Positions 4,419 through 42,498 are shown, counted from the first letter of the stretch. The stretch is 64,000 bases of DNA from Candidatus Omnitrophota bacterium (GCA_016931055.1 JAFGFL010000050.1:1535-65534), one strand, 5' to 3'. Numbers and translations are program-made. The notes: generated by a model from the letters alone, not told the origin.

Positions 4419-4422
<4 letters not shown>
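3367..4422 (-). CDS. hypE: Hydrogenase maturation protein HypE
   Basis: AIR-synthase-like fold ending in the diagnostic C-terminal PRIC. I place the start at the internal MKKRNDF Met (ATG 4422-4420), which forms an ATGA overlap with the hypD stop. The track ORF to 4530 is an artefactual extension. Confidence 0.9.
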
Positions 4423-5761
<1,339 letters not shown>

Positions 5762-5792: not shown

Positions 5793-8123
5793 TCATAATA
5801 AGGCTACTTGGCTATGTTCTTTTTCCGCGATCCGATGGGCTGCGCAGACCGCCTGCCCCAAAGATATCCCGCCGTCGTTCGGCGGGACTAACTGGTGCCA
5901 ATAGACGTTGAATCCCGCGCTTTTTAAGCGGCTGATCATCCGTTCGGTCAAATATTTGTTCTGGAAACATCCGCCGCTTAGAACGACTCTGGGCTCGCCG
6001 ATTTTCCGCGCAACATCAACCGCCATTTCAACAAGCGTATTATGGAATTCCGCCGATATGATTTTCTTGTCTTTGCCGTCACGGACATCTTGAATGATGT
6101 CATGGACCATGGCCGTCCAGTCCGCCACATAACCTAGAGCCTCATTGCCAGGGACAGCAAAATCATAATGGTTATGAATGACCGTATCCCCGATCATATA
6201 TTCCAGGCCCATGGCCGCCTGCCCTTCAAAACGCAGGGTCTGTTTGATATCCAAGAAGGAAGCAACCGCGTCAAATAAACGCCCGACGCTTGACGTCGCT
6301 GGGGCATTGAGCTTTTTATCCAGCATGTTCTTCAGGACAGCCAGTTCCTCGCGAGAAAACGCCCTGATCGATGCCAAATCGGAATACCCTTCAAAAGTCC
6401 CGTTTGAAAGATCGTAAAGGATCGATGCGGCAACCCTGCGCGGCTCAACAGCGGCTTTATCCCCGCCGGGAAGCAGGAAGGTCTTCAGATGCGCCACACG
6501 CCGGTAATCGTTCAAATCTGCTTTTAAGAACTCCCCGCCCCACACCGTTTGATCATCTCCATATCCCGCGCCGTCCCAGGCGATGCCAAGCACGGTCCCC
6601 TCCAATTGATTTTCCGCCATGCACGAAACAATGTGGGCATGATGATGCTGCACTTTCATAAGCGGGAGTTTTGTGTTCTCTGCAAACTTTGTGGAAAGAT
6701 AGTCCGGGTGCATATCACACACAATCGTATCCGGGGAAGACTCATAGAGATTTTTAAGGCTTTCCGATGTTTTCTGGAATGCCGATAACGATTGCTGCGT
6801 CTCTAGGTCTCCGATATGTTGGCTCATAAAAACATTGCCGTTTACACTTAAAGCGACTGTATTCTTCAGATGGCCACCTGTCGCCAGAATATCCGCTCCT
6901 TTTGTCATTGTCATAACAGGCAACGGCGCGTATCCGCGGGCGCGCCGCAACACATACGGCCTTTCCATAATGACCCGAACGACCGAATCATCAATGCTTC
7001 GGACGATGGGACGGTCATGGACAAGGAAACAATCAGCGATCCCGCCAAGCCTTTGCAAAGCCTCATCCTCATTGATACAAATCGGTTCTTCGGCGAGATT
7101 GCCGCTCGTCGCGACAACAGCCTTCCCCAGTTCCCTCATCAGAAGATGGTGCAGGGGGCTGTAAGGAAGCATCGCGCCTAAGCAAGGGTTCCCTGGTGCA
7201 ACAGAAGGCGCGATCGCCCTAGATGGATCAGCATCCTTCCTTTTGGCTAATAAAACAATGGGGCTTTCGCTGGCCCCTAAGATCGCCCTCTCTTGGGGCG
7301 CGACTTCACAACATCTCTCAATCCATTCCATTGACGGGAACATCAAGGCAAACGGTTTTTCTTCGCGATGTTTTCTCTCGCGTAAACGGCGCACCGCTTG
7401 CTCATTGTGGGCATCCACAACCAAGTGAAAACCGCCGATCCCTTTAACCGCGACAATCTTCCCTTCCTCAATAGCATTGACCGCAGCCGTAATGGCCTCC
7501 CGACGGGAGCCCATGACATGACCGGCAATGTCCCATAATTCCACATGAGGGCCGCACTGCGGGCACGCGTTAGGCTGGGCATGAAAGCGGCGATCGGACG
7601 GGTCTTCATATTCCCTCCGGCACTTCGGGCACATGTGAAACCTTTTCATGGTTGTGTTGGCCCGGTCATACGGCAGCGCATCAATAATTGAATAGCGGGG
7701 GCCGCAATGGGTGCAGTTCGTGAACGGATACAAAAAGCGGCGGTTGGTCGGATCAAAAATCTCTTTCAGGCATTCCGGACACGTTGCCGCATCCGGCAGG
7801 ACAACGGCTGTTTTCAAGTCCGCCGGATCGCTTTCTTTAATCTGAAACTCATTGAAACCCAACGGGTCGAGAAAACGATATTGATAGCCCTGGATAAAAC
7901 TGTTTTCGGGTTTCTCTATCGGAATACGCTTGAGCAAAGAATCCAGTTGTCCCGCGGGTCCTTCAGCCTCAATCATCACGCCTGAGGAAGTATTACAGAC
8001 GAATCCGGCAAGCCCCAGAGTCTTCGCCAGATGGAAAATAAAAGGGCGGAAACCCACGCCCTGCACGGCCCCGGTCACTTGAATACAAATCCGTTGGAGT
8101 TGCTGTTCGTTATTGGTCTTCAT
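5793..8123 (-). CDS. hypF: Carbamoyltransferase HypF
   Basis: 776 aa. Contains an acylphosphatase domain (VTGAVQGVGFRPF) and two zinc-finger pairs (CPECLKE...CTHCGPRYS; CPKCRREYED...CPQCGP), followed by YrdC-like and Kae1-like domains. Confidence 0.93.
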   Translation of the reverse strand: MKTNNEQQLQRICIQVTGAVQGVGFRPFIFHLAKTLGLAGFVCNTSSGVMIEAEGPAGQLDSLLKRIPIEKPENSFIQGYQYRFLDPLGFNEFQIKESDPADLKTAVVLPDAATCPECLKEIFDPTNRRFLYPFTNCTHCGPRYSIIDALPYDRANTTMKRFHMCPKCRREYEDPSDRRFHAQPNACPQCGPHVELWDIAGHVMGSRREAITAAVNAIEEGKIVAVKGIGGFHLVVDAHNEQAVRRLRERKHREEKPFALMFPSMEWIERCCEVAPQERAILGASESPIVLLAKRKDADPSRAIAPSVAPGNPCLGAMLPYSPLHHLLMRELGKAVVATSGNLAEEPICINEDEALQRLGGIADCFLVHDRPIVRSIDDSVVRVIMERPYVLRRARGYAPLPVMTMTKGADILATGGHLKNTVALSVNGNVFMSQHIGDLETQQSLSAFQKTSESLKNLYESSPDTIVCDMHPDYLSTKFAENTKLPLMKVQHHHAHIVSCMAENQLEGTVLGIAWDGAGYGDDQTVWGGEFLKADLNDYRRVAHLKTFLLPGGDKAAVEPRRVAASILYDLSNGTFEGYSDLASIRAFSREELAVLKNMLDKKLNAPATSSVGRLFDAVASFLDIKQTLRFEGQAAMGLEYMIGDTVIHNHYDFAVPGNEALGYVADWTAMVHDIIQDVRDGKDKKIISAEFHNTLVEMAVDVARKIGEPRVVLSGGCFQNKYLTERMISRLKSAGFNVYWHQLVPPNDGGISLGQAVCAAHRIAEKEHSQVALL

Positions 8124-8214: not shown

Positions 8215-8457
8215 TTATTCAATGTCAAACGAAAGGACTTCGATCCTTGAGCCCGGGAAAAAGGTCAACTCAAGCTCGGCATCCTTAAGCATCGTGCCTT
8301 TGGCCAGAACCGAGAACGTTTCTTTAAAAGAGTCCTCTTTGACCCCCATAAACTCGCCGACCTTGAGCCTAATCTTCGACACGCTCCCCGCCCCCTCTTT
8401 TTGGGCATGCTCACTGATACCTTTAATGATCGGTTCTATCAAATGCGTTTCGTGCAC
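8215..8457 (-). CDS. HypA-like protein lacking the zinc-ribbon domain (80 aa)
   Basis: Has the N-terminal MHE nickel-site motif and the HypA alpha/beta core (AQKEGAGSVSKIRLKVGEFMGV). There is no CxxC...CxxC segment: the sequence goes straight from ELELTFFPGS to RIEVLSFDIE. Compare the full-length hypA at 36477-36920. Confidence 0.7.
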   Translation of the reverse strand: MHETHLIEPIIKGISEHAQKEGAGSVSKIRLKVGEFMGVKEDSFKETFSVLAKGTMLKDAELELTFFPGSRIEVLSFDIE

Positions 8458-8470
8458 GGTAAACTTCCTT

Positions 8471-8935
8471 TCAAATTTGACGGCCTAAAACGCTTTCTAT
8501 TTTCTTTGACACTGCTTCAACTGCCGCCAAAACACGGACGGACATCTCTTCCCCCATCGTAAGATTCTCAGGCTGTATGCCTAACAAATAAATATCCGCC
8601 TTTGTCTGAACCTGAAGATACTCGATAAGCATAGCCGGAGATATATCATGCGTCGTAAAACCGCTTTTTATTATATCAGATTTCCCCAGGATTTCATATT
8701 CGCCCGGCGAACGGCCCAGATGCACGGCATCGATGATCAATATCGTGTCAGGGCTTTCTTTGATAATCTTGCCCGTGTAACTTTCCGGCGCATTTCCCGC
8801 GTCGATGCAAACCGCTTTGACGTGTCCCTTTATCCTTTCGATCAGGGCCGGGCCCAACCCGTCATCGGCGCGCAGGACATTGCCGACACCAACACAGACA
8901 ACCTTTCCCTTTAACACTTTGGCAAAGTCTTTCAT
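8471..8935 (-). CDS. [NiFe] hydrogenase maturation endopeptidase (HycI/HyaD family)
   Basis: 154 aa with the VGVGNVLRADDGLGP motif (GxGNxxxxDDGxG) and a family-typical length. Confidence 0.85.
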   Translation of the reverse strand: MKDFAKVLKGKVVCVGVGNVLRADDGLGPALIERIKGHVKAVCIDAGNAPESYTGKIIKESPDTILIIDAVHLGRSPGEYEILGKSDIIKSGFTTHDISPAMLIEYLQVQTKADIYLLGIQPENLTMGEEMSVRVLAAVEAVSKKIESVLGRQI

Positions 8936-8968: not shown

Positions 8969-9580
8969 TTATTTCGTCGTGAGAGTCGTTTCTCTTCTGC
9001 AGCGCGCGCAAAGCATTTTAACTCGATCGGACCTACCAAAGTCTTTTAACGCCGTCATCATGTTCTCATCGATGACGCCCATATTGTTCAGACCTGATAG
9101 ATATAAGGTGGGACTGGAATATTCGAGCTCACCGATTCTCTCTGAAATCCATTTCAAGTGGTCTTTGCAGGCGATGGGCGCCTTGCAGATCTCGCATAAT
9201 TGAAGCTCTTTTTCGATCGTCTCATAAGACTCTTTCCTGTCAAAAAACGCCAGGTCCCAGTCATTGGACAATTTAATGCCTTCATGGTTGGCAATGCACG
9301 CGGCCTCGCATTCCCCGCAAAAAATGCACGTATCCGTATAATGGATCATGGTCCTTTTCGCCTTGCCATTCTCATCAATCTCATCTTTATGCGCGATGGC
9401 GTAGACAGGGCACACCGCCTCGCAGGCAAGGCAACCGACGCATTTCTGGTCGTTGAATTTCGGCTGGCCCCTGAAATTCGGATGGGCAACATGAGGCTCC
9501 TTGGGAAACTTCGACGTGTACGGCCCTTGGATAAGGGCTTTAATGGCCTCGATAAGTTCTCTGATCTTCGGTAATTTCAT
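8969..9580 (-). CDS. NuoI/MbhN-like 2x[4Fe-4S] subunit with Cys-rich C-terminal extension
   Basis: Contains CVGCLACEAVCP and CIFCGECEAAC motifs, plus extra CEICKAPIAC and CARCRRE motifs in a roughly 70 aa tail. Confidence 0.8.
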   Translation of the reverse strand: MKLPKIRELIEAIKALIQGPYTSKFPKEPHVAHPNFRGQPKFNDQKCVGCLACEAVCPVYAIAHKDEIDENGKAKRTMIHYTDTCIFCGECEAACIANHEGIKLSNDWDLAFFDRKESYETIEKELQLCEICKAPIACKDHLKWISERIGELEYSSPTLYLSGLNNMGVIDENMMTALKDFGRSDRVKMLCARCRRETTLTTK

Positions 9581-9588
9581 TGATCGAT

Positions 9589-9918
9589 TTATCCCTTTCC
9601 ATCCTCGGCATACCGGTCAATCACACTGCCTTCCCAAAGTTTAACGCCGGACTTGTGCGCGCCGCGGGCAATGGCATGCGCCGCCACAGGAGTCGTTAAG
9701 AGAAGAAACACAATGCACAACAGCGCTTTTATGCCGGTTGTCGTTAATCCCACAATAAGAAATGCCCCAAACAAAATACTGCAGGTTCCCATGGTAACGC
9801 ATTTGGTGGCCGCTTGCAGGCGATTATACACATCCGGAAGCCGCAACACGCCCAGACATCCAAACGCATCAAAGGCAAGACCGATGACAATGAATATAAG
9901 ACCTATCGTATCAACCAT
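9589..9918 (-). CDS. MrpG/MnhG-like (MbhC-like) antiporter subunit
   Basis: 109 aa with 3 TM and the LGVLRLPDVYNRLQAATK motif typical of MnhG/PhaG. Confidence 0.8.
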   Translation of the reverse strand: MVDTIGLIFIVIGLAFDAFGCLGVLRLPDVYNRLQAATKCVTMGTCSILFGAFLIVGLTTTGIKALLCIVFLLLTTPVAAHAIARGAHKSGVKLWEGSVIDRYAEDGKG

Positions 9919-9942
9919 CTGTTGTCTCCGTAATCTGTTCGT

Positions 9943-10311
9943 CTATTCATCAAAGCTTCTGCCTTCCAGGAATTTTGAGAACGCCAATACGCTGATGAAA
10001 CTCTGCAAGGCCCAGGCCATGGCGATATCCAAATACCATGTCCTTCCCGTCGAAATCGTTAATATCGAACACAACCCTATGATCAGGATGCCCAAAATGT
10101 CGATCGCCACGATCCTGTCCGCGCCGGTCGGCCCCAAAAATACCCTCCAAATACACATTGTCCCGGCAAGGAGGATCACATAAAGAGCCCGGCTTAAAAA
10201 GGTAAAGTACGGCAGGCCGGGAGGCGAGAGAAATTGCATGTGCCCACCCATGATATAAACAAGAATCGAAATTAATATGACCGCCCCGATGACCCACCTG
10301 ATGATTTTCAT
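9943..10311 (-). CDS. MrpF/MnhF-like (MbhB-like) antiporter subunit
   Basis: Small 3-TM protein with a GPTGADRIVAIDILG segment typical of MnhF. The start may be internal. Confidence 0.7.
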   Translation of the reverse strand: MKIIRWVIGAVILISILVYIMGGHMQFLSPPGLPYFTFLSRALYVILLAGTMCIWRVFLGPTGADRIVAIDILGILIIGLCSILTISTGRTWYLDIAMAWALQSFISVLAFSKFLEGRSFDE

Positions 10312-10321
10312 AACCTAACCC

Positions 10322-10822
10322 CTATTCAAATACTTCTTTTAGGATATTCTCAAACCGCTGCACAATCTCTCTTGTCGCCGACTCAACATCTTTTCCCTTG
10401 ACATTGATCGAGTGAACATACAAAACGCCCTCTTCTTCATCAATATCGACCGTCATCGTCCCCGGCGTCAGCGTGATCGAGTTGGCCAAAAACGTCAATG
10501 CCGTATCCGATTTCAATGTCGTCTTCACTTTGACAATCCCCGGATTGATCGGAAGATTGGGATGAAGCACGCGATAGGCGACATCGATATTGGCCTTGAT
10601 GACCTCTATTATAAACATCGGCACATAATGGAATACAAAGTAAAAATAACGCCGGTGGTGCTTGAGCACATAGGCCCTCTGAATGAACAAGTCCCCGGTC
10701 AGCCATGAGACTAACGCAGCCGAAAAAACACCGACGATCACATGCTGCCAATCAGGCACCCAGTTTAAAAGGCACCAAACAATCAACGCCATAACAAATA
10801 GGATCAGTCGTCTTTTTACCAT
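10322..10822 (-). CDS. MrpE/MnhE-like (MbhA-like) antiporter subunit
   Basis: 166 aa with two N-terminal TM helices and a soluble C-terminal domain. Its position and architecture match MnhE. Confidence 0.7.
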   Translation of the reverse strand: MVKRRLILFVMALIVWCLLNWVPDWQHVIVGVFSAALVSWLTGDLFIQRAYVLKHHRRYFYFVFHYVPMFIIEVIKANIDVAYRVLHPNLPINPGIVKVKTTLKSDTALTFLANSITLTPGTMTVDIDEEEGVLYVHSINVKGKDVESATREIVQRFENILKEVFE

Positions 10823-12327
10823 GATAACGATACCTCTTTAAGGACAATGGCGGCGTAATTTACGCCTAGAGCGATCACATCCGATGCCCTGTTAAGAAAA
10901 ATATCCCTTAGGGAAGGAATAAGCAACATCCCGCCGATCAGGCAGACGACGGACAATACAACCATTGATAATTTCATAAAAAACGGGACTTCTTTGATGC
11001 TCATTAATCCTTCTTTCAGCCTGCCGAAATACGCATATTTCATGACCTTCATGAAAGAAGCCAATGTCAAGACACTCGCCACAACCGCCCAAAAGGCATA
11101 ACCGAACCGCTGTGCCTGGACCGCCGCTATGATAATAATCAATTTGCTCCAAAATCCGTTAAAAGGCGGAATGCCGGCGATCGACATCGACGCGATGAGG
11201 TTCGTTGACCCTGTAACAGGCATCTTTGACATCAGCCCTCCCATTTTCTGCAAATCGCGTGTCCCCGCCGAATATTCAATAGCTCCCGAATTTAAAAAGA
11301 GAAGCGACTTAAAAACGGAGTGATTAAACAAATGAAAGATCCCGCCCAAGATGCCCAGAGGCGTTCCAAGCCCGATCCCCAGAAAGACATAACCGATCTG
11401 GCTTATGGAATGGTAAGCTAAAAGCCGCTTGAGGTCCCATTGGCCGATCGCCAGAAAAACGCCGACGACCATCGAAAGCGTCCCCAAAAACATGATTATG
11501 GAAGACAATTCCGCTGTCATTCCGATGACATTATAAAATATCCTTACCATCGCGTACACGCCCAAAGACTTGATCAAAATGCCCGATAACATCGCCGAGA
11601 TCGGCGCTGGCGCGGAAGGATGCGCGTCCGGCAGCCACGCATGGAAAGGAACAAGGGCCGCTTTTAAGCCCAATCCCATGATGAATAGAACACTGACCAT
11701 AAGAACAAGATTCGCTGCGCCTTTTTGGGCCAGCATGTTTGCCATATCCGCCATATTCAAGGTCGATGTTAAGCCGTACAGTAACACGATACCTAATAAA
11801 ACAAACATCGAACCGACCGTGCTCATGACCGCGTATTTAAAAGCCGCTTCGAGCTCATGCTTCTCGGTCCCGAAGGCAACTAACGCATAGCTCGCGACAG
11901 AAGCGATCTCAAGAAACACGAATAAGTTAAAGATGTCTCCTGTCACAATGACGCCGTTCATCCCGGTCAACATCAAAAGAAATAACGTGTAAAACTTTCC
12001 CTTGGCCGTAAAGCGTTCCATATAATTGATCGAATAAAGAGCGATCATGAAGGCGATAAAATTGACCGTCACAAGCATAAAGGCGGTCAAACCGTCTAAA
12101 ACCATGGCGATCCCCAAGGGAAGCTTCCACGCGCCGACGCTGTAAACAAGGGTTCCGTGCGTTCTCACAACCTGGACCGCCAAAACCGAAAAAAAGAAAA
12201 GGATAAACGCCGATAAATTTCCAATCGCATCCGGCACCCATTTGGCCTTTTTCTCAACCAGGGAATTGAGAAACGCGCCGGCCAGGGGCACAATAACAAA
12301 CATCGGTATGATATTAACTGCCTGCAT
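10816..12327 (-). CDS. MrpD / NuoM-N-type antiporter-like pump subunit
   Basis: 503 aa, about 14 TM. Family hallmark FHAWLPDAHPSAPAPISAMLSG is present. Confidence 0.85.
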   Translation of the reverse strand: MQAVNIIPMFVIVPLAGAFLNSLVEKKAKWVPDAIGNLSAFILFFFSVLAVQVVRTHGTLVYSVGAWKLPLGIAMVLDGLTAFMLVTVNFIAFMIALYSINYMERFTAKGKFYTLFLLMLTGMNGVIVTGDIFNLFVFLEIASVASYALVAFGTEKHELEAAFKYAVMSTVGSMFVLLGIVLLYGLTSTLNMADMANMLAQKGAANLVLMVSVLFIMGLGLKAALVPFHAWLPDAHPSAPAPISAMLSGILIKSLGVYAMVRIFYNVIGMTAELSSIIMFLGTLSMVVGVFLAIGQWDLKRLLAYHSISQIGYVFLGIGLGTPLGILGGIFHLFNHSVFKSLLFLNSGAIEYSAGTRDLQKMGGLMSKMPVTGSTNLIASMSIAGIPPFNGFWSKLIIIIAAVQAQRFGYAFWAVVASVLTLASFMKVMKYAYFGRLKEGLMSIKEVPFFMKLSMVVLSVVCLIGGMLLIPSLRDIFLNRASDVIALGVNYAAIVLKEVSLSW

Positions 12328-12665
12328 TATCCTCTTAACTCCTTGATCTGGGTAATATCAAATGTCCCGTATTTTTCATAGATGCGCATCGCAATAGCGA
12401 TCAGCAATGCCATGCTCGCGACGCCAATAACGATCGACGTCAGCACCAAGGCCTGCGGCAGCGGGTCGACCATATTCAAGATATCTGCCTTTTGATCGAA
12501 AATCGGAGACCGCCCTTGCATCCGGTAGCCAATCAAGATAAAAAACAGGTTGACGGCGTATTCCGAGATAATCAGCCCAACGATGATCTTGATGATATTG
12601 CGCTTTCTTAAAACGCAGTAAATACCCAAACAGAACAGCAAAAGACAAAGCAAATATAACGTCAT
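12327..12665 (-). CDS. MrpC/MnhC / NuoK-like subunit
   Basis: 112 aa, 3 TM, with start and stop overlapping the neighbouring genes. Confidence 0.75.
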   Translation of the reverse strand: MTLYLLCLLLFCLGIYCVLRKRNIIKIIVGLIISEYAVNLFFILIGYRMQGRSPIFDQKADILNMVDPLPQALVLTSIVIGVASMALLIAIAMRIYEKYGTFDITQIKELRG

Positions 12666-13117
12666 TCCTTTTTCTCCGTATCGAGTTTTAATAAAACCAA
12701 AGCCACAAAGATGGCAAAAAGACCCGCGCTGACCTTAAAGCTTATGGCGACGTTGCACAGGGGGATGATCCCCGCGCTGAAAAGCCTGAACGGCTCGCCC
12801 TTCGGAATAAAATTCAGGAAAAAGGACCCACCTGTAAATCCTAATACCGCTATCATTAAAAAGAGCAACGCCCCGATGCTTTCCAATATCGATGCCGCAT
12901 TGTGCGGCAGCCTTTTGAGGGTCTCTTCTTTCCCGTAAGCCAGCATTAAATGGATAAACGAAAGCGCTATAATGACCCCTCCGGCAAATCCGCCGCCGGG
13001 GGACACATGCCCGTGCGAAATAATATAGATCCCGTACAGAATGATAAAACCAACCGTAAGACGCGTGATCGTCTTAACGATCAGAGACATGCCCTTGTGT
13101 TTCTCTTGGATCATCAA
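12662..13117 (-). CDS. MrpB/MnhB-domain subunit
   Basis: 151 aa, 4 TM. It has MnhB-like glycine-rich helices (HVSPGGGFAGGVIIAL). Confidence 0.7.
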   Translation of the reverse strand: MMIQEKHKGMSLIVKTITRLTVGFIILYGIYIISHGHVSPGGGFAGGVIIALSFIHLMLAYGKEETLKRLPHNAASILESIGALLFLMIAVLGFTGGSFFLNFIPKGEPFRLFSAGIIPLCNVAISFKVSAGLFAIFVALVLLKLDTEKKE

Positions 13118-13662
13118 TATTCCTCTTCCTCTTCCTGCTGGCCTTCTTTTTTCCTTCCGACGCGGCGCACCACCGCCAAAACACTGATGACGGCCGCGAA
13201 CAGAACGGTCGCTTCACCAAGCGTGTCAAACGCCCTGAAATCAAGGATGACGGCCGCAACGATATTGGTCGCGCCAGTCTTCGCCATCCCTTCACTCAAA
13301 TAAGTGCGTGCGACCCTCATGTCCGGATACCCGAATTTCGGGAGATCTTGAAAACATTTTGCCGCAATGACCATCAGAACTACGATGAACGCTCCTGTAA
13401 TAAACGTGTTGACCAGCCACCGGCCTGACGTCGAAAACGGCAGGTCCTTTTTCAACGTGGCCCGGATCAATATGATCAAGGCCAATATTTCGACGACCAG
13501 CTGCGTGATCGCCACGTCAGGCGCCTTTAAGATCAAGAACACGATCGAGAGGCATAATCCCACGGCGCCGACGGCGACAACCGAAGAAAGAAGGTCCTTG
13601 ACCTCTATCGCGATGATAGCGCCGATGATCATCAATACCAGTAAAATATGTAGTCCGAGCAT
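13114..13662 (-). CDS. MbhD/E-like subunit (MrpA C-terminal-domain type)
   Basis: 182 aa, about 5 TM, with an acidic tail. Position and topology correspond to the split-off C-terminal part of MrpA, as in Mbh complexes. Confidence 0.6.
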   Translation of the reverse strand: MLGLHILLVLMIIGAIIAIEVKDLLSSVVAVGAVGLCLSIVFLILKAPDVAITQLVVEILALIILIRATLKKDLPFSTSGRWLVNTFITGAFIVVLMVIAAKCFQDLPKFGYPDMRVARTYLSEGMAKTGATNIVAAVILDFRAFDTLGEATVLFAAVISVLAVVRRVGRKKEGQQEEEEEY

Positions 13663-13663
13663 A

Positions 13664-15328
13664 TTATCCTAACAGGATCCAAAAAAGAACGATCATCCCC
13701 AACAGGCACCACGACAGATATGTCGAAAGCACGCCATTGTGGAGAGAACGTAAGACTTTATTAAACCCAAACGTTACCTTTGTCCCAACCTCATAAATAT
13801 CAAACGCTTTTTCTTGGGCCAATCGGTACATAAATTTCAAGACACCGATATCCTGAACTGTATTATAAAATTCGGCCCCTGAAATCCTCATGTCCGGGAT
13901 ATCCTTTAATATCTCGCCTCCCATAAACACTTCGGCCTCCCGGGTCTTGGCCGCCGAACCCAAAAGATAGATCACAAGACCTAACACGATCCCGATCAAT
14001 ATCAAAACCGTCGCCAGCCCGGCTTGCCATACACCGGAGAACACAACGCCCTGAACTGCCGGGAAAATGAAGGCCTTTAACGGGCCGCTGTAAGCGAATA
14101 TGCCGAACGCGATACACAGGGCCGCCAACACTATGGATGGGGCCAGCATGGTCAGGCCTGTTTCCTGGATCCTTTCATCCGTGATCTTCCTTTCCCGGGA
14201 AGGCTGGCCTAGAAATATCGCATGTATTAATTTCATAAAGCTGGCCAATGTCAGCGCGCTGCCAAGCATGGCCGCAATCAACCATACGATCCAAAGATGG
14301 CCCCCGCTCTTCCCGCTCTCGATGACCCCCTGATAGACCATCCATTTGGAGGCGAACCCGTTAAAAGGTGGGACTCCTGATATCGACAAGGACGCGACAA
14401 AAAACGTCATAAACGTGACCGGCATGACCTTGACGAGCCCGCCCAGTTTTTCCAAATCAGTGGTCCCTGCTTTCTTCTCGACCGCCCCGCCCGAGAAAAA
14501 CAAACAGGATTTATAAATAGCGTGATTCAACATGTGGAATAATCCGCCCGCGATCCCGATGGGATTTCCGGTCCCGATGCCCAAGACCATATAGCCGACT
14601 TGACTGACCGCATGATACCCCAACAATCTCTTGAAATCATGCTGGATGAGCGCCATCATGACCGCCGCCACGATCGTGACGCTTCCGACCACCATAAGAA
14701 ATACGTTCATCGCCCCGTTCATCTGAAACACATCCAGGGAAATCCTCGCGAGAAAATAAATCCCCAAAAGCTTATCGAGGGAGGCCGGCAAGAAAGCGGT
14801 CACGGGTGTCGGGGCATCCTCGGCCGTATCCGGTACCCAACTATGAAACGGCATCGCGCCGGCTTTCGCAAAGGCCCCAACTGCAAGGCACAGGTAAGCG
14901 TAAACGGCAATCTTGTTATCAAGCGCGATAGACAGTTTATCCATATCGAAAGTGCCGCTTAAATACCAAATAAAAGCAGCCCCCAAAAGCATAAAAGCGT
15001 CGGTCCCTCCGATAATGATGAACGTCTTTTTTGCCGTATAGGATACGCGCTCGTTCTCGCCAAAGCCGATGAGAAGATAAAGCAAAAGCCCCAAAACCCC
15101 CCAGAAGATCATTAAAACGATCAGATGATTGGCAAACACGACTCCCAGGGAAGCGGCGATCGTCAGCAATATATAGATATAGTAACGCACCAACCCTTTT
15201 TTCCCCCGCATAAAGCCAATAGAGTAAATAACGGTTAGAACGGAAAAGAAAACGACGAACATCCCAATAAAGGAAGATAAGGGATCTGATCTGAAAAACC
15301 CATAACTTTGTCCGATAAAATCCATCAT
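13664..15328 (-). CDS. MrpA / NuoL-type antiporter-like pump subunit (MbhH-like)
   Basis: 554 aa, about 16 TM. Family hallmark FHSWVPDTAEDAPTPVTAFLPAS is present. It overlaps the large-subunit stop by 4 nt. Confidence 0.85.
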   Translation of the reverse strand: MMDFIGQSYGFFRSDPLSSFIGMFVVFFSVLTVIYSIGFMRGKKGLVRYYIYILLTIAASLGVVFANHLIVLMIFWGVLGLLLYLLIGFGENERVSYTAKKTFIIIGGTDAFMLLGAAFIWYLSGTFDMDKLSIALDNKIAVYAYLCLAVGAFAKAGAMPFHSWVPDTAEDAPTPVTAFLPASLDKLLGIYFLARISLDVFQMNGAMNVFLMVVGSVTIVAAVMMALIQHDFKRLLGYHAVSQVGYMVLGIGTGNPIGIAGGLFHMLNHAIYKSCLFFSGGAVEKKAGTTDLEKLGGLVKVMPVTFMTFFVASLSISGVPPFNGFASKWMVYQGVIESGKSGGHLWIVWLIAAMLGSALTLASFMKLIHAIFLGQPSRERKITDERIQETGLTMLAPSIVLAALCIAFGIFAYSGPLKAFIFPAVQGVVFSGVWQAGLATVLILIGIVLGLVIYLLGSAAKTREAEVFMGGEILKDIPDMRISGAEFYNTVQDIGVLKFMYRLAQEKAFDIYEVGTKVTFGFNKVLRSLHNGVLSTYLSWCLLGMIVLFWILLG

Positions 15329-16503
15329 TTCATGCTCTTTCGGATTTTTTCCGTCTTCTCCTGCGAAAGCCTGACGAGGTCTTCGCCGTTATAAAGTTTC
15401 TTTCCTTTTACATTGCGGACCGCCACTCTTTCCGTGCAGCAATAGCACGGGTCAATGGCCGCTAGTATGATCGTCGCGTCCGATATGGTTTCCCCAACGA
15501 TCGTCGACTTGTACGTGGGAAGGTTCATAAACGTCGGCGCCCGGACCTTATGGCGGGCCGGCCTGTTCGTCCCGTCACTGCGCACATAATGGAACACCTC
15601 TCCCCTCGGCGCTTCTGCGCAACCGATGCCTTCGCCCGGAGGGATATCTTTAAGGCGCAGGTCAATGTCCCCTTGAGGCAGATTCGACAGGCACGCCTTC
15701 ATGATCTTGGCCGACTCTAACATTTCGAGTACGCGTAACAAAACCTTATCAAAGACATCTCCGTTCTGGGTGACGATCATTTTCCATTCGACCTTATCAT
15801 ACGCCCCATAGGGTGCGTCTTTTCTCACATCGCGGGCCACGCCGGAAGCCCTGGCCGTGGGCCCCAGAGCGCTGTAACCTTTCGCTTCTTCTTTCGTAAG
15901 GATTCCCACCCCTTTGGTCCGCGCGTGCAGAACAGGGTCATCCATGACCGCTTTTTTAAGCATCTCTAATGTCGGAACGATGGAATCGATCTTTCTGATC
16001 ACGCCGGGAATGTCTCCGGATTTGATATCCCTGCGCACGCCGCCGGGCTTGAACATCGCGTAATTATTCCTGTTGCCGGAGAGGATCTCCATGACATCGA
16101 GGATCTCTTCCCTTAATTTCCACGCCCACATAAAGACCGTATTGTACCCGAGGAAATGGCCGGCAAGGCCGAGCCACAACAAATGCGAATGGATCCGTTC
16201 GCCTTCGGCGATGATCGTCCTTATGTATTTCGCCCGGTCCGGCACCTCAACGGGAATAATATCTTCGACAGCTCTCGTGTAAGCATAGGGATGGCTTGTC
16301 GAACAAATCCCGCAGATCCGCTCGATCACGAACGTCGACTGGTCAAAGGTCTTCATCTCTGAAAGCTTTTCGATGCCCCTGTGGTTATATCCCACGCTGA
16401 CATCTACAGCGGCAATTTTCTCCCCTTCGACCGTAAGAGTAAAAAACTCCGGCTCTTCCTGCAAGGGGTGATATGGCCCAATGGGCACTATGGTTTTTGC
16501 CAT
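15325..16503 (-). CDS. Group-4 [NiFe] hydrogenase large (catalytic) subunit (MbhL/EchE/NuoD-like)
   Basis: 392 aa. Both Ni-Fe ligand motifs are intact: ERICGICSTSH (N-terminal CxxC) and DPCYCCTER (C-terminal CxxC). These are followed by a roughly 33 aa tail, the expected protease substrate. Confidence 0.9.
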   Translation of the reverse strand: MAKTIVPIGPYHPLQEEPEFFTLTVEGEKIAAVDVSVGYNHRGIEKLSEMKTFDQSTFVIERICGICSTSHPYAYTRAVEDIIPVEVPDRAKYIRTIIAEGERIHSHLLWLGLAGHFLGYNTVFMWAWKLREEILDVMEILSGNRNNYAMFKPGGVRRDIKSGDIPGVIRKIDSIVPTLEMLKKAVMDDPVLHARTKGVGILTKEEAKGYSALGPTARASGVARDVRKDAPYGAYDKVEWKMIVTQNGDVFDKVLLRVLEMLESAKIMKACLSNLPQGDIDLRLKDIPPGEGIGCAEAPRGEVFHYVRSDGTNRPARHKVRAPTFMNLPTYKSTIVGETISDATIILAAIDPCYCCTERVAVRNVKGKKLYNGEDLVRLSQEKTEKIRKSMK

Positions 16504-16506
16504 GTC

Positions 16507-16980
16507 CTATACACCTCGATCCCTGATCGCGCTCTTGTCCCACTCTTCATAATCCCGCCTCAGCGGATAGACGCCTTGCGGCCATTCCGCCGGAAGAAGA
16601 AGCCTTCTCATATCCGGATGGCCTTTAAACTTGATTCCCAGAAGCTCATTTATCTCCCTCTCGATCCAATTGGCCGCCTCAAACAGGGGAGCAAGCGAGT
16701 CGATCTCGAGTTTTGCCTTGTCCAAAGCAACCCTGAAAGAAATCAAGAGATTAATCTCCTCAATCGTAAAATGGTAAAGGATTTCCATGTGATACCGCAC
16801 ATCCACGCCGGATGCGATATTGAACCGGGCGCCCAGGTCATAAAAAATATATTTCGCCATCCTGGTAATCGCCTCAGGCCGGATATCGATATAGACGCGT
16901 TTAACCGACTTCTCAAAGACGTTCGTAATATCGCCTTTAAATTTATCTTTCAGGTCTTGCAAGACTTCTTCGCGTGTCAT
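16507..16980 (-). CDS. NuoC/MbhK-like subunit
   Basis: 157 aa. The C-terminal segment is like a NADH dehydrogenase 30 kDa subunit (ERE(I)NELLGIKFKGHPDMRRLLLP). Confidence 0.8.
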   Translation of the reverse strand: MTREEVLQDLKDKFKGDITNVFEKSVKRVYIDIRPEAITRMAKYIFYDLGARFNIASGVDVRYHMEILYHFTIEEINLLISFRVALDKAKLEIDSLAPLFEAANWIEREINELLGIKFKGHPDMRRLLLPAEWPQGVYPLRRDYEEWDKSAIRDRGV

Positions 16981-17426
16981 TTTCTCTTAGAACTTCCTTC
17001 CAGTTTTTCTTTTTTGATTTTTTCTATCAATTTAACCACAGCCGAGATCATCGCTTCCGGTTTCGGCGGGCAGCCAGGAACATAAACATCCACCGGGATG
17101 ACTTTGTCCAAAGGAACAGGACAATTATAACTGTGCATAAACATACCCCTGGACAGCGCGCATTCCCCAATTGCGACCACAAGACATGGCTTCGGGACCT
17201 GCTCGTAAAGCCTTTTGACCCTGATCATGGACTTCCTGTTACACGAACCGGTCACCAAGAGGACATCGGCATGTTTAATGCTTCCGGCAAGAATCATGCC
17301 GAAACGTTCGATATCAAACCGGGGCGTCAGACAGTCCAACACCTCGATATCGCAGTTATTGCAACTGCCAGTCGACAAATGGAAAACCCAAGGTGATTTC
17401 AGCAACGCTTTGAGCTTCATGGACAT
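16977..17426 (-). CDS. NuoB/MbhJ-like hydrogenase small subunit
   Basis: Cluster ligands are GSCNNCDIE, IGECALSRG and VPGCPPKPE. I prefer the start at MSMKLKALL (17426), 7 nt after the upstream stop. The track ORF extends to 17468. Confidence 0.85.
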   Translation of the reverse strand: MSMKLKALLKSPWVFHLSTGSCNNCDIEVLDCLTPRFDIERFGMILAGSIKHADVLLVTGSCNRKSMIRVKRLYEQVPKPCLVVAIGECALSRGMFMHSYNCPVPLDKVIPVDVYVPGCPPKPEAMISAVVKLIEKIKKEKLEGSSKRK

Positions 17427-17433
17427 CTTGTTC

Positions 17434-18375
17434 TTATCTCCCCCATATGGCCAGCAAGACCGCAGCAATCGCCATCATTGTCATCGGTCCCCAAAACCAT
17501 CGGACAGCCTGGTCAATCCGCACCCGCGGATTGGTATTTCTAATAACTGTTATCAGCGCCACTAAACCGACATACTTTAACACACCGTATAAAAAATGGA
17601 TCCCGTCAAATCTCAACCCGCCCATAAACAGGATCATCACAAAAAACGGCAACGTGAATAGGAGCATGTTCTTCATAAGCCTGAAAACCGCCAATCCCGG
17701 GCCGGAATATTCAATGATCGCGCCGCCGGCAATTTCCGTTTCCGCTTCGGCGACATCAAAAGGCACAAGGCCCAGTTTGGCCTGCATACAGAATATCACG
17801 ACAAGCCAGGCAAGGAAGCCGGACCAGCTCCCGATAAAAACGCCATTTTGCATCTGAGCGGTCAGCATGTCTCCAAGCCTGATTGACAAACCGCTTTTGA
17901 TGACTGGGACAAGAATCGCCAATAAAAAGGGCAGTTCGTAACCTAAAATAAGCTTCATTTCGCGGGAAGCCCCCAAACTCGCCAAAGGATTCCTGGAGGC
18001 AAAGCCCCCCATAATGATGCTGACAGACGGAATCGTCAAAAGATAAACAACAACGATCAAGTCCCCGATAAACGATTCCTTGGGATTAATATTGTTAAGC
18101 CATAGTAACGTCGAAACCAAGATGACGCTTGCCAGACCGACTAACGGTGCTAACAAAAAGGCCGTCTTCGAGGCCCCAACCGGTACAAGCGTTTCCTTCC
18201 CCAACAGTTTTATGATATCGGTCAACGGCTGCATCAACGGCGGGCCGACACGGTACTGGACCCTCGCAGTGACTTTCCGGTCGATCCAGCTGGCCAAAAG
18301 ACCGATGACGGCTGTCAACAAGAATCCGAACATAAGAACATACATTAAATAGATCATGCTTTTTCCCAAGCCCAA
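17434..18375 (-). CDS. NuoH/MbhM/HycD-like membrane subunit
   Basis: 313 aa, 8 TM, with a DRKVTARVQYRVGPP motif. Confidence 0.85.
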   Translation of the reverse strand: MGLGKSMIYLMYVLMFGFLLTAVIGLLASWIDRKVTARVQYRVGPPLMQPLTDIIKLLGKETLVPVGASKTAFLLAPLVGLASVILVSTLLWLNNINPKESFIGDLIVVVYLLTIPSVSIIMGGFASRNPLASLGASREMKLILGYELPFLLAILVPVIKSGLSIRLGDMLTAQMQNGVFIGSWSGFLAWLVVIFCMQAKLGLVPFDVAEAETEIAGGAIIEYSGPGLAVFRLMKNMLLFTLPFFVMILFMGGLRFDGIHFLYGVLKYVGLVALITVIRNTNPRVRIDQAVRWFWGPMTMMAIAAVLLAIWGR

Positions 18376-18911
18376 TGGGTCGAATGAACAATCAGGTTAT
18401 CACCCACCAAGAACGTGTTCGCATCCAGCTCCCCGTCAGCTTTCTTCACGCTCAGCGCGCCGTGCGGGCATGTCTTTGTGCACAAAGGTTCGTTTGCTTT
18501 GTCTCTGCGGTCCAAACAAAAATCGCAATTATGGATCAAGAGGGGAACATTCTCCGGATAAATGGTGCCGTAGGGGCAGGCATGCGAGCATGATTTGCAG
18601 CTGATGCAGCGCATATTGTGCCTGACCAGTATCCAATTTTTTTCCGGTTGCTGCTCAAGGGCGTCCACGGGGCAGGCAGCGATGCAATGCGCGTTTTTAC
18701 ATCTCCGGCACACAAGGGCATACGTCGCAAGTTCAACGATAGAACGAACGCCGTTATTGCCGGGATGATAAAAATAACTGCATTGGACGGTACACGTTTC
18801 ACACTTTTTTGATGAGCAGATGTCCAGGTCAAGAAAAATACGCTCATCCTTCCCCTTTTGGGGTGCGATGTTAAAGGCTTTGTTGTGGATCTGTTCCGCG
18901 CTTGAATTCAT
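18354..18911 (-). CDS. CooF/HycB-like polyferredoxin (four Cys clusters)
   Basis: Four Cys motifs: CSSKKCETCTVQC, CRRCKNAHCIAACP, CISCKSCSHACP and CDFC...CTKTCP. Start taken at MNSSAEQ (18911), 1 nt after the upstream stop; the track ORF to 18992 is an extension. Confidence 0.8.
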   Translation of the reverse strand: MNSSAEQIHNKAFNIAPQKGKDERIFLDLDICSSKKCETCTVQCSYFYHPGNNGVRSIVELATYALVCRRCKNAHCIAACPVDALEQQPEKNWILVRHNMRCISCKSCSHACPYGTIYPENVPLLIHNCDFCLDRRDKANEPLCTKTCPHGALSVKKADGELDANTFLVGDNLIVHSTHWAWEKA

Positions 18912-18912
18912 C

Positions 18913-19728
18913 TTAGTCCCATATTTCCTTAAGATGCTTGATCTTATCATAACGGAAAACCGGGCCATGCTTGCAGGCGTAATACACGTCAAGCCTGCAA
19001 TGGCCGCACTTCCCGATGCCGCAGGACATATTCTTTTCCATGGAAAGATAGATATTTTTGTCCTGAAAGCCCATTTCCAGCAATTTCAGCGTCGCGAACT
19101 TCATCATGATGGGAGGGCCGCATACGATGGCAATACCCTCGGGGTAATGGATCTTCACATCGTCAAGGATCGTTGTCACGAGGCCGACGTGGCCTTTCCA
19201 CGTTTCATCGCCTTTATCGACCGTAAGCCTCAAATTCAGGTCTTTCCGTTTCGCCCATTCTGCTGTTTCATCCTTAAATACCATTTCTTTGGATGTCCGG
19301 CAGCCGCCTCTGAAATACAGGCTCTTTAACTCTCCCGACATCTCAAAAAATGAATACATGAGGCTTCTTAGCGGCGCGAAACCGCAGCCGCCCCCCACGA
19401 CCAAAACATCCTTGCCCTTGAACTCATCTAACGGATACCCGTTGCCGAAAGGCCCCCTGAGCCCGACAATGTCCCCTTCTTTCAGCTGATGCACCCGTTC
19501 TGTTACCTTTCCGACTTTCATGATGCTGACATGCAATTCTTCCTTCACGGATGATCTGGAGGAAGGAGTGAACGGCCCCTCGCCTACGCCGGGGATCGAT
19601 AACTCGATAAACTGACCTGCCTTGAAAGATATCTCTTCCTTCGGCTTGAGCCTCAACGTCTTGATCGTAGGCGTCTCGGGGATCACTTCAAGGACTTCTG
19701 TTTCAATGGGGCGATAGGGATTGTTCAT
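18913..19728 (-). CDS. Sulfhydrogenase gamma (HydG)/AsrB/PyrK-like FAD-NAD(P)-binding [2Fe-2S] oxidoreductase
   Basis: Ferredoxin-reductase fold (FKAGQFIELSIPGVGEGPFTPSS; LVVGGGCGFAPL) with a C-terminal CGIGKCGHCRLD cluster motif. Start taken at MNNPYRP (19728); the track ORF to 19863 is an extension. Confidence 0.75.
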   Translation of the reverse strand: MNNPYRPIETEVLEVIPETPTIKTLRLKPKEEISFKAGQFIELSIPGVGEGPFTPSSRSSVKEELHVSIMKVGKVTERVHQLKEGDIVGLRGPFGNGYPLDEFKGKDVLVVGGGCGFAPLRSLMYSFFEMSGELKSLYFRGGCRTSKEMVFKDETAEWAKRKDLNLRLTVDKGDETWKGHVGLVTTILDDVKIHYPEGIAIVCGPPIMMKFATLKLLEMGFQDKNIYLSMEKNMSCGIGKCGHCRLDVYYACKHGPVFRYDKIKHLKEIWD

Positions 19729-19729
19729 G

Positions 19730-20764
19730 CTATTTATTATCAACCAGTTTTTTAAGAACTTTTCGGATATCGATTTCCGCCGGACAGGCCGATATGCACC
19801 GCCCGCAGCCCGTACAGGCGTAAACGCCGGAGACCCTCGGGAAATAATCAAATTTCTTCTCAAACCTGTTCCTCAGCCGCATCCAGAGCTTCGGCCTTGG
19901 GTTCCCGCCTCCCGCGACCCGCGCAAAATCCTTGATCATGCAGGAGTCCCATATTCGAAAGCGCTGCGTGCTTTCCCCGACCTTTTGGTCATACAACAGG
20001 AAACAATGGCATGTCGGACATATGGTGTTGCATGCCCCGCATTCCACGCATGTCCTTGACTCTTCTTCCCATAGGGCAGATTCGCTGTTTTTAATAATGT
20101 CTTTAAAACGGTCCTGATGCGGAACTTCATGTTCCTTAATATTGGTTTCCACCAAACCTCTCACGCGGGAACGCTGCTGGTCTCGGGCACGGACTTGTCC
20201 ATCAGACGCGTTTTCGAATAAAGACGGGTTTTTTTCAACAAGGGCCCTCCCTTTATCAGAGCCGGCCTGCACAACAAATCCGTCTTCAATCTGGGACAAG
20301 TTGATATCAAAATTTTCTTCCGGAAAGGGTTGTATGCCTAACGCGAGGCAGAAGCATGTGTCAATCGCGCAAGTGCAATCGGCACTCACAATAAGATTCT
20401 CTGCGCGGTTTCTCGCATAGAAAGGGTCTTGTTCATCGCTATTGGCAAAGACGAAGTCCTGGATCTTAAAGCCTTTAAGGTCACAGGCCTTAACCCCGAT
20501 AATGGCGTAGGGCTTATTGTCCGGACGCGGGACATCATTCTTAAATCCGTGGGCAACGACTTCCCGGGCGCGGGAGAAAAACGCCTTGAGAGGTTCAACC
20601 GGCCTGACTTCGCCGATCACGATCTCATCGACATTGCCGGCATATTTCTTGAGATAACGATGGTTCCCTTTTTTGACAGGGACATAAACTTCATAATCAT
20701 CCGAAAGCAACTTGATAAAATCGCTGAATTTCGCTTTTTTCAGTATTTTTTGACTTGTCATCAT
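19730..20764 (-). CDS. Sulfhydrogenase beta (HydB)/AsrA-like iron-sulfur subunit
   Basis: 344 aa with CVECGACNTICPTCHC and CTGCGRCISACPAEI motifs. It is paired with the gamma-like gene, as in group-3b hydrogenases and anaerobic sulfite reductase. Confidence 0.7.
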   Translation of the reverse strand: MMTSQKILKKAKFSDFIKLLSDDYEVYVPVKKGNHRYLKKYAGNVDEIVIGEVRPVEPLKAFFSRAREVVAHGFKNDVPRPDNKPYAIIGVKACDLKGFKIQDFVFANSDEQDPFYARNRAENLIVSADCTCAIDTCFCLALGIQPFPEENFDINLSQIEDGFVVQAGSDKGRALVEKNPSLFENASDGQVRARDQQRSRVRGLVETNIKEHEVPHQDRFKDIIKNSESALWEEESRTCVECGACNTICPTCHCFLLYDQKVGESTQRFRIWDSCMIKDFARVAGGGNPRPKLWMRLRNRFEKKFDYFPRVSGVYACTGCGRCISACPAEIDIRKVLKKLVDNK

Positions 20765-20801
20765 TGTATTTAAGCAGATTGAACGGTGGGTAATTAGCCT
20801 A

Positions 20802-20830
20802 CATTATGCCCACAAAAAAAAGCATAGTCA
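20802..20830 (-). promoter_or_regulatory. Sigma70-like promoter of the hydrogenase operon
   Basis: Minus strand reads TTGACT - 17 nt - CATAAT, about 35 nt upstream of the ATG at 20764. Confidence 0.4.
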
Positions 20831-20924
20831 ACCAAAATGTCTTAAATATTGTCAGGATGCGGCCCTAAATCTATAATTTGCAGAATCAGGGGGGCTTTGC
20901 TTCTGATGTCTTATTGATGCCCTG

Positions 20925-40823: not shown

Positions 40824-40836
40824 TCTCTCTCTTTCG

Positions 40837-42477: not shown

Positions 42478-42498
42478 TTGAATAGTCCACCCCCTTCC

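Follow-up and report, generated by a model that had tools for sequence, protein, structure and literature searches.

The closest described counterpart of the locus reported here is the Hun supercomplex, a name that Glass et al. gave, in a study carried out entirely in silico, to the product of a 16-gene operon, hunA-P (10.1101/536078). They listed it in metagenome-assembled genomes of Atribacteria, Omnitrophica, Elusimicrobia and Bacteroidetes and in the cultured Kosmotoga, and they pointed out the CGIC and CYCC motifs of the large subunit, HunG, which HydDB assigns to group 4g despite its distance from the other sequences there (10.1101/536078). We analysed a 64-kb stretch of DNA from Candidatus Omnitrophota bacterium (GCA_016931055.1, JAFGFL010000050.1:1535-65534; hereafter the window), in which an original prediction, made from the sequence alone, had recognised a membrane-bound [NiFe] hydrogenase operon headed by a putative pyridine-nucleotide module. 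Judged by its gene content, the locus (20764 to 8969 on the minus strand; all gene coordinates are positions in the window) is a canonical hun operon, hunA-P followed by hycI and hyp genes, and a new member of a known family, because it has the 16 genes in the published order, the CGIC and CYCC motifs in HunG, and an Omnitrophica origin.

Related gene arrangements have been reported elsewhere. In 2019, Matheus Carnevali et al. described asrA-, asrB- and cooF-like genes together with a formate dehydrogenase (Fdh)-like gene beside an "enigmatic" Mrp-linked group-4 hydrogenase, suggested that these genes stand in for NuoE and NuoF, and found the nearest relatives of the hydrogenase in Omnitrophica and Zixibacteria (PMC6349859). 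A paper of 2026 linked homologues of the beta and gamma subunits of Pyrococcus furiosus sulfhydrogenase I (SHI) in group-4b clusters to NADPH, proposed bifurcation or confurcation, and described group 4g as polyphyletic (PMC13582414). The Saganbacteria RX5A/group-4b clusters of these two studies, to which the Omnitrophica enzymes are the nearest relatives, likewise have asrA/asrB- and cooF-like genes by an Mrp-linked group-4 hydrogenase; they add an Fdh-like molybdopterin subunit, with a proposed three-way electron path, whereas the window has no such gene. The novelty of composition implied by the original prediction is therefore lost, the whole having been published as Hun (10.1101/536078), the asrA/asrB/cooF link in 2019 (PMC6349859) and the NADPH link in 2026 (PMC13582414). 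That enzymes of this subgroup carry such a module has been reported by genomics, not by biochemistry, so that a refuting condition of the original prediction, a large subunit from a subgroup already shown to use the module, applies in weakened form. NADPH-linked group-4 enzymes are not treated in a JBC review on complex-I-like enzymes, and a mention of "HydB" in an Asgard paper proved to be the database name HYDB only.

The 16 hun genes are consecutive and tightly packed on the minus strand, and open reading frame (ORF) calls with Pfam and NCBIfam searches match them one for one with the published hunA-P order. As in the Hun operons of Glass et al., AsrA/AsrB-like HunAB and CooF-like HunC stand at the 5' end with no AsrC, HunG has CGIC in its L1 motif and CYCC in L2, an Mrp-like module follows and HunP comes last; orthology and synteny join the locus to 80 other hun loci. 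The one structural difference, and this from some hun operons only, is that the window has no molybdopterin protein between hunB and hunC. The gap between these genes is 1 nucleotide (nt) in the window, and there was no room for an extra gene in any of the 73 related loci with hunA, hunB and hunC, where the largest gap was 453 nt.

HunA carries two Cys motifs, CVECGACNTICP and CTGCGRCISACP; it aligns over its full length, with every Cys matched, to the beta subunit of P. furiosus SHI (PDB 9nez_B, E=1e-47), and HunB aligns end to end to the gamma subunit (9nez_C, E=8e-49). Both proteins keep every Cys aligned with SHI beta and gamma, and GGGxGxxP, CGPP and CGIGKCGHC are also kept. The motifs of HunB for flavin adenine dinucleotide (FAD), nucleotide and cluster are at least 90% conserved in 74 orthologues. 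NCBIfam models place HunA nearest to ShyB (189 bits), then HydB (172) and AsrA (133), all below the curated cut-offs, and the top score of HunB is to the AsrB model; the AsrA and AsrB equivalog cut-offs of 323 and 288.6 bits compare with 133 bits for HunA and 245 for HunB. According to a passage of PMC13582414, which cites Xiao 2025, NADPH is oxidised in SHI by the beta and gamma subunits. An NAD(P)H link is a plausible and the most parsimonious reading of HunB, and the evidence leans towards NAD(P)H as the electron partner of Hun, because the ligands of SHI beta and gamma are kept, the HunB motifs are conserved in the 74 orthologues and, as set out below, relatives of the operon are associated with rex and Rex boxes.

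The hydrogenase itself has the expected features of group 4: a NuoD-like large subunit with all four Ni-Fe cysteines (RICGICSTSH in L1, DPCYCCTER in L2), a NuoB-like small subunit, HunE, with one cluster and four Cys (CxxC, C and CP, read from the translation), and NuoC-, NuoH- and NuoI-like subunits. HunG continues for about 32 amino acids (aa) after CCTER, a C-terminal extension that goes with a dedicated endopeptidase gene, hycI. Orthologues of HunG keep L1 in 52 of 59 cases and L2 in 54 of 59. Its best matches among solved structures are MbhL (6cfw_L, 3e-86) and then HycE (7z0s_E, 3e-80), and the ShyA and HydA models of group-3 large subunits match its N-terminus weakly (48 and 27 bits). 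These observations support the assignment of the HunG complex as a true group-4 [NiFe] hydrogenase; an Mbx/Mbs-type non-hydrogenase is ruled out by the four Ni-Fe cysteines together with hycI and the hyp genes. HunC has 16 Cys in four motifs, and its neighbours in the PDB are HycB4, the FDH-N beta subunit and similar proteins of the HycB/FDH-beta type. HunP is closer to HycF (7z0s_F, 2e-18) than to MbhN (2e-10). The matches of HunC and HunP fit the arrangement of formate hydrogenlyase (FHL), in which a soluble dehydrogenase is wired to a hydrogenase.

HunP is about 60 aa longer than MbhN, and its match to HycF ends at residue 143. Its C-terminal extension (residues ~125-200) contains CEICKAPIAC and, further on, CARC, that is CxxC...C and CxxC, whose cysteines could bind a metal or an extra cluster.

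Nine membrane subunits are encoded in the operon, and by Pfam the Mrp-like module is complete, with two antiporter-like subunits, HunH and HunL. As gene content, then, the coupling to Mrp claimed by the original prediction holds good, hydrogenase genes being joined to an Mrp-like module. Its other gene assignments fared equally well: ORFs, Pfam and NCBIfam confirmed each family and motif, among them the first protein with its two iron-sulphur motifs, the beta/gamma pair (genuine sulfhydrogenase homologues by profile searches and by alignment to 9nez), the four-cluster CooF-like polyferredoxin (Fer4_11) and the true hydrogenase with its own HycI protease. HunH matches the NuoL model as far as position 609 of 615, and it may carry a NuoL-type C-terminal lateral helix, a feature not found in P. 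furiosus Mbh.

Conservation of the gene order was surveyed from HunA, which was searched against 1.84 billion representative proteins; an alignment of 15 close and mid-distance hits was then scanned against one genome per GTDB species, an initial alignment of 51 sequences having proved too divergent for this purpose. HunA relatives are encoded in at least 576 stretches, and the best 80 were analysed by tblastn with all window proteins (identity 44-67% for HunA and 64-87% for HunG), retention being counted only on contigs that were long enough. HunB was retained in 74 of 75 of these loci, HunC in 71 of 72, the large subunit in 54 of 56 and the MrpA-like subunit in 48 of 52, and the gene order of the window recurs in nearly all 80 loci. 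The loci are labelled Omnitrophota, Elusimicrobiota, Atribacterota, Spirochaetota, Nitrospirota, Methylomirabilales, Hydrogenedentota, Fermentibacteria/Aegiribacteria, Latescibacterota and Clostridia, among about a dozen phyla, and include that of the cultured Desulfosarcina variabilis str. Montpellier, which lies at about 6,089,135-6,110,154 of NZ_CP159846.1. HunG is 100% identical to a protein from a Candidatus Omnitrophica metagenome-assembled genome and 83-87% identical to at least 119 other protein clusters, those named for an organism all being Omnitrophota, and HunA homologues at 62-69% identity were also found. The neighbourhood survey that the original prediction had called for thus finds the beta/gamma pair with hydrogenase genes in nearly all 80 loci, and synteny of this breadth rules out a chance juxtaposition.

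Some loci labelled Spirochaetota are rearranged. In six of them (L029, L039, L041, L042, L047 and L071) hunP and hycI come directly after hunG, and in L029, L039, L041, L042 and L071 the Mrp-like genes are divergent, upstream of hunA; in L043, L051 and L055 the NuoH-like gene has been relocated behind hunP. The sole exception to synteny is a locus labelled Latescibacterota (L004:10001-13495), where hunA is followed by MnhE/F/G-like genes without hunB-hunL, which may be a deletion or an assembly artefact.

When the ORFs that precede hunA in the related loci were clustered, one neighbour dominated, a gene of the Rex family of NADH/NAD+-sensing repressors (Put_DNA-bind_N and CoA_binding), which lies directly upstream of hunA and in the same direction in 20 of the 70 loci with enough upstream sequence. 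Palindromes resembling a Rex box (TTGTGAA-N4-TTCACAA with at most two mismatches) numbered 14 in 22.4 kb of rex/hunA promoter regions and 6 in the other 1.05 Mb of these loci, so that they are about 110-fold enriched, and L021, which has no rex, carries a perfect box, TTGTGAATTTTTTCACAA, 41 nt upstream of its hunA. Examples of rex or of a Rex box are found at L009:5486-6148, L002:3986-4630, L016:9349-9960 and L021:9960-9977. The link between rex and hun is unmentioned in the Hun papers cited here and was not found by a targeted literature search. Through this association, Hun expression in many lineages would follow the ratio of NADH to NAD+, which fits a role in NADH disposal. Expression has been recorded for the Kosmotoga olearia cluster of the same gene order (Kole_0560-0574): on pyruvate it is uniformly low, at about 30-200 reads per kilobase per million mapped reads (RPKM), beside about 1900 or more for the Fe-only hydrogenase (PMC5674127). 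Pyruvate yields ferredoxin, and low transcription on it agrees weakly with the view that Hun is not the outlet for ferredoxin.

The tight spacing of the genes and their retention among the 80 closest HunA loci lead us to read Hun as one complex. With a probability of roughly 0.55, it would be a single membrane complex of 16 subunits in which electrons pass from NAD(P)H, via HunB, to the Ni-Fe site of HunG, coupled to the movement of ions; the subunit contacts, the nucleotide as substrate, the ion coupling and the direction are inferred. HunB would bind NAD(P)H at its FAD, and electrons would pass to its [2Fe-2S] cluster, to the [4Fe-4S] clusters of HunA, through the four clusters of HunC and the two of HunP, and from the single HunE cluster to the Ni-Fe site, where protons would be reduced to H2, the whole chain being reversible. 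The peripheral arm would resemble that of FHL with the beta/gamma flavoprotein pair in the position of FdhF, and turnover at the HunG/HunE/HunD interface would be coupled to H+ or Na+ movement via HunD and the Mrp-like module. Which way the complex runs would depend on the H2 pressure, on the ion gradient and on the ratio of NAD(P)H to NAD(P)+. At low H2, fermentative NAD(P)H would be re-oxidised with the export of ions or, failing that, at no cost to the gradient; at high H2, the gradient would be needed for H2 production, or the complex would work as an ion-pumping H2:NAD(P)+ oxidoreductase. A fuller proposition has in our estimation slightly less than an even chance: Hun would be an ion-translocating NAD(P)H:proton oxidoreductase that works in both directions, in effect a "complex I that reduces protons", its input being of the PyrK/FNR type and of independent origin, and in many lineages Rex would switch it on when NADH builds up. 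We know of no characterised enzyme with such an activity.

Several points weigh against an NAD(P)H-linked Hun. With midpoint potentials (E0') of -414 mV for H+/H2 and -320 mV for NAD(P)+/NAD(P)H, the production of H2 from NAD(P)H costs about +18 kJ/mol under standard conditions; it is endergonic, so that ions could be exported in this direction only at low H2 or with NADPH kept very reduced. Below about 60 Pa H2 the reaction becomes exergonic, increasingly so if the NADPH pool is reduced, and at the H2 levels of sediments H2 evolution could be neutral or weakly energy-conserving. The original prediction had allowed such a complex either to conserve energy while reducing NAD(P)+ with H2 or to use the ion gradient to make H2, and this choice was too narrow, as the evolution of H2 from NAD(P)H can be exergonic in its own right where H2 pressure is low, as in anoxic sediments. 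An Arg and a Lys after strand beta-2 that are common to HunB and SHI-gamma vary among orthologues, and because the residues at this place are not conserved, a preference for NADH or NADPH is not readable from the sequence. The window has no rex by tblastn, and its Rex-box matches are at the level of chance (4 found, 3.85 expected), with none near hunA. Rex also controls ferredoxin-dependent hydrogenases in other bacteria, for which reason the association in relatives is not decisive. Hun complexes are known from genomics and not from biochemistry or genetics, and Kole_0567, an Mrp-like gene of the K. olearia cluster, is annotated as a pseudogene (PMC5674127). The published expectations for the donor also differ from ours: Glass et al. 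predicted ferredoxin, by analogy with AsrAB (10.1101/536078), and Williams et al. (2021), who put the Mrp-linked hydrogenases of Omnitrophota in group 4g, assumed ferredoxin (PMC8542988); the 4g label of HydDB carries the same prediction.

If ferredoxin is the donor, Hun would be an Mbh-like pump that takes electrons from it at HunABC, or at HunP directly, and makes H2 with export of H+ or Na+, the flavoprotein being a relay or a vestige. Ferredoxin is used by all characterised Mrp-linked or Ech-type group-4 hydrogenases that lack a dedicated dehydrogenase, the best solved relative of HunG is the ferredoxin-dependent MbhL of P. furiosus, the host phyla are fermenters that produce reduced ferredoxin, and this donor is the published prediction (10.1101/536078; PMC8542988). 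Mbh and Ech, however, work without a flavoprotein, and a ferredoxin pump leaves a conserved HunB unexplained, when purifying selection on its FAD and NAD(P) motifs is strong across the 74 orthologues and HunA and HunB occur together in 74 of 75 loci of sufficient length. The Asr analogy behind the prediction is also weak, in that gamma, AsrB and PyrK belong to a family of pyridine-nucleotide flavoproteins, and the hun transcripts of K. olearia are low on pyruvate, where ferredoxin is the main reductant (PMC5674127). We regard a pump of this kind as unlikely, although it is the explanation to be taken most seriously beside NAD(P)H input. Slightly more doubtful is an enzyme with two donors, a confurcating one, that would combine NAD(P)H at HunB with ferredoxin at HunC or HunP and so dispose of NADH as H2 at higher H2 pressure, or would also couple electron transfer from ferredoxin to NAD(P)+ to the movement of ions, H2 serving as a valve. 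Related clusters that include the extra Fdh-like subunit have been modelled with AlphaFold 3, and the three-way branched cluster network obtained was read as bifurcation or confurcation (PMC13582414); about ten iron-sulphur clusters offer several possible docking points, and the Rex link fits NADH disposal here too. But neither the window nor any of the 73 loci with hunABC has the Fdh-like or molybdopterin subunit that forms the third branch, and no second flavin protein was found in the operon by Pfam. The PyrK-like subunit of Nfn, moreover, is its non-bifurcating site, which we count against two donors.

The operon might instead hold two unrelated neighbours, HunAB(C) forming a soluble oxidoreductase of the sulfite/polysulfide or another type and HunD-P a separate hydrogenase. 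The high score of HunB against AsrB and the match of HunA to AsrA speak for such an arrangement, and a passage of PMC8542988 cites sulfur-reductase activity for P. furiosus SHI. Both scores nevertheless lie below the Asr cut-offs, no AsrC, siroheme gene or other catalytic partner was found in the operon genes and the immediate flanks that were scanned, the hun genes are translationally coupled, and the same hydrogenase genes follow nearly all of the 80 closest HunA homologues. Synteny, translational coupling and the lack of AsrC thus exclude, for practical purposes, both two unrelated neighbours and an Asr-type sulfite reductase, and we give the former hardly any credence. A sulfite or polysulfide reductase was rejected on the missing AsrC and the sub-threshold scores. 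No molybdopterin oxidoreductase or CooS was found by Pfam among 52 ORFs of the window (five ORFs of at least 150 aa lay outside that scan), and a formate hydrogenlyase or CO-dependent hydrogenase was rejected, there being no FdhF or CO dehydrogenase (CODH) among the 52.

Set beside characterised enzymes, the NAD(P)H-linked complex that we favour would combine parts of several. It shares with P. furiosus Mbh (group 4d; 6cfw) a NuoB/C/D/H/I-like module on an Mrp-derived arm. Mbh has 14 subunits with one antiporter-like subunit and no flavoprotein or polyferredoxin, and ferredoxin docks on its MbhN; Hun has two antiporter-like subunits, the HunABC input and a HunP that is nearer to HycF. In FHL-1 of Escherichia coli (7z0s) and in the Mrp-linked formate and CO hydrogenases of Thermococcus (4a/4b/4c), a dehydrogenase is wired in through proteins of the HycB/CooF and HycF types, as in Hun, where a beta/gamma flavoprotein pair replaces FdhF or CODH and the predicted substrate is a pyridine nucleotide. 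With P. furiosus SHI (group 3b; 9nez/9nf0) Hun shares the beta and gamma subunits, to which HunA and HunB are homologous over their full length, all cofactor ligands included. SHI, however, is a soluble heterotetramer whose large subunit belongs to group 3 and whose delta subunit holds three clusters, whereas in Hun the pair sits on a membrane-bound group-4 enzyme; of the marks of group 3b, Hun has the beta and gamma subunits and lacks the group-3 large subunit, the delta subunit and the solubility. Complex I, like Hun, has a pyridine-nucleotide flavoprotein input, an iron-sulphur wire, a NuoB/C/D/H/I core and antiporter-like subunits. The flavoprotein of Hun is of the PyrK/FNR type and not NuoEFG, and its acceptor would be H+ at a Ni-Fe site, not quinone.

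The window is one more copy of a described operon and of modest value in itself. Hun-type operons, however, are spread over many phyla of uncultured anaerobes, dominant in sediments, aquifers and digesters, and are at present modelled as a ferredoxin-dependent "group 4g Mbh". If they are linked to NAD(P)H, reconstructions of Omnitrophota, Atribacterota, Fermentibacterota and other groups mis-assign NADH recycling and the site of energy conservation; there would be a new coupling site joining NAD(P)H and H2 to the ion gradient, and a pyridine-nucleotide input would have been grafted onto the Mbh/complex-I scaffold at least twice. Fermenters of low-H2 sediments would conserve energy from NAD(P)H-driven H2 evolution, and users of H2 would pump ions while making NAD(P)H.

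The positions of the hun genes, of the maturation genes behind them and of a promoter candidate are collected in Table 1.

Table 1. The hun operon, its downstream maturation genes and a candidate promoter in the 64-kb window.
Feature	Position	Strand	Description
hunA	19730-20764	-	SHI-beta/AsrA-like iron-sulphur protein, 344 aa; Pfam Fer4_22 1e-30
hunB	18913-19728	-	SHI-gamma/AsrB/PyrK-like flavoprotein, 271 aa from ATG 19728; Pfam FAD_binding_6, NAD_binding_1, DHODB_Fe-S_bind
hunC	18354-18911	-	CooF/HycB-like polyferredoxin, 185 aa; Pfam Fer4_11 4e-16
hunD	17434-18375	-	NuoH/HycD/MbhM-like membrane subunit; Pfam NADHdh 4e-62; start TTG 18375 or ATG 18357
hunE	16977-17468	-	NuoB-like hydrogenase small subunit; Pfam Oxidored_q6 4e-28; probable ATG 17426
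hunF	16507-16980	-	NuoC-like; Pfam Complex1_30kDa 6e-27
hunG	15325-16503	-	[NiFe] large subunit, NuoD-like; Pfam Complex1_49kDa, NiFeSe_Hases
hunH	13664-15328	-	MrpA/NuoL-like antiporter subunit; Pfam Proton_antipo_M 1e-59
hunI	13114-13662	-	MbhD and MbhE fusion; Pfam MbhD 8e-17, MbhE 6e-12
hunJ	12662-13117	-	MnhB-like; Pfam MnhB 8e-27
hunK	12327-12665	-	MnhC/NuoK-like; Pfam Oxidored_q2 2e-26
hunL	10816-12327	-	MrpD-like antiporter subunit; Pfam Proton_antipo_M 5e-68
hunM	10322-10822	-	MnhE-like; Pfam MNHE 2e-47
hunN	9943-10311	-	MrpF/MnhF-like; Pfam MrpF_PhaF 4e-17
hunO	9589-9918	-	MnhG-like; Pfam PhaG_MnhG_YufB 9e-25
hunP	8969-9580	-	NuoI/HycF-like 2x[4Fe-4S] subunit; NCBIfam FHL iron-sulfur subunit 6e-26
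hycI	8471-8935	-	large-subunit maturation endopeptidase; Pfam HycI 8e-15
hypA-like	8215-8457	-	truncated; Pfam
hypF	5793-8123	-	Pfam
hypC	5507-5761	-	Pfam; N-terminus MCLAIPG
hypD	4419-5510	-	Pfam
hypE	3367-4530	-	Pfam
moeA	2145-3350	-	molybdopterin molybdenumtransferase; directly after hypE, same strand
promoter candidate	20803-20831	-	sigma-70-like, TTGACT-17-CATAAT; 39 nt upstream of hunA ATG

The ORF coordinates agree with the few-nucleotide gaps and overlaps claimed by the original prediction: the hun genes are separated by 1-nt gaps or joined by ATGA or 1-7-nt overlaps, the largest spacing being 24 nt, and hycI starts 33 nt downstream of hunP. The 22-nt overlap described between the CooF- and NuoH-like genes depends on the start chosen for hunD. 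It is obtained from TTG 18375 only; from ATG 18357, at least as likely a start, the two genes share an ATGA overlap. The hun genes look like one transcription unit, because they are translationally coupled and keep the same order in genomes whose labels span about a dozen phyla. The HypA-like ORF between hycI and hypF (80 aa) matches the HypA model over positions 1-68 of 112 only and appears to lack the C-terminal zinc-finger part.

A promoter for the operon had also been proposed. The sequence TTGACT-17-CATAAT is indeed present and well placed, scoring 10 of 12 as the top minus-strand match in the 19.7 kb scanned, but it is statistically inseparable from chance, promoter-like matches in the scanned region being no more frequent overall than in shuffled sequence (25 found, 22.2 expected); as the hunA promoter it is plausible, not proven. 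The strongest promoter-like match of the region, TTGTCA-17-TATAAT (11 of 12), lies at 20849-20877 on the plus strand and is directed away from hunA, and the plus strand near it holds no convincing gene.

Elsewhere in the window, a minus-strand cluster at 39996-45847 encodes three P-loop NTPases of the MinD/ParA type, two with 4Fe-4S domains (42888-43772 and 44993-45847) and a third at 39996-40874, together with a TauE/SafE-like permease and a 546-aa ORF (40837-42477) without a Pfam match. Leaving aside those nested within a longer minus-strand ORF, there are 58 ORFs of 150 aa or more, every one of them on the minus strand, and the GC skew stays below zero throughout; the 64 kb thus forms one long block of co-oriented genes.

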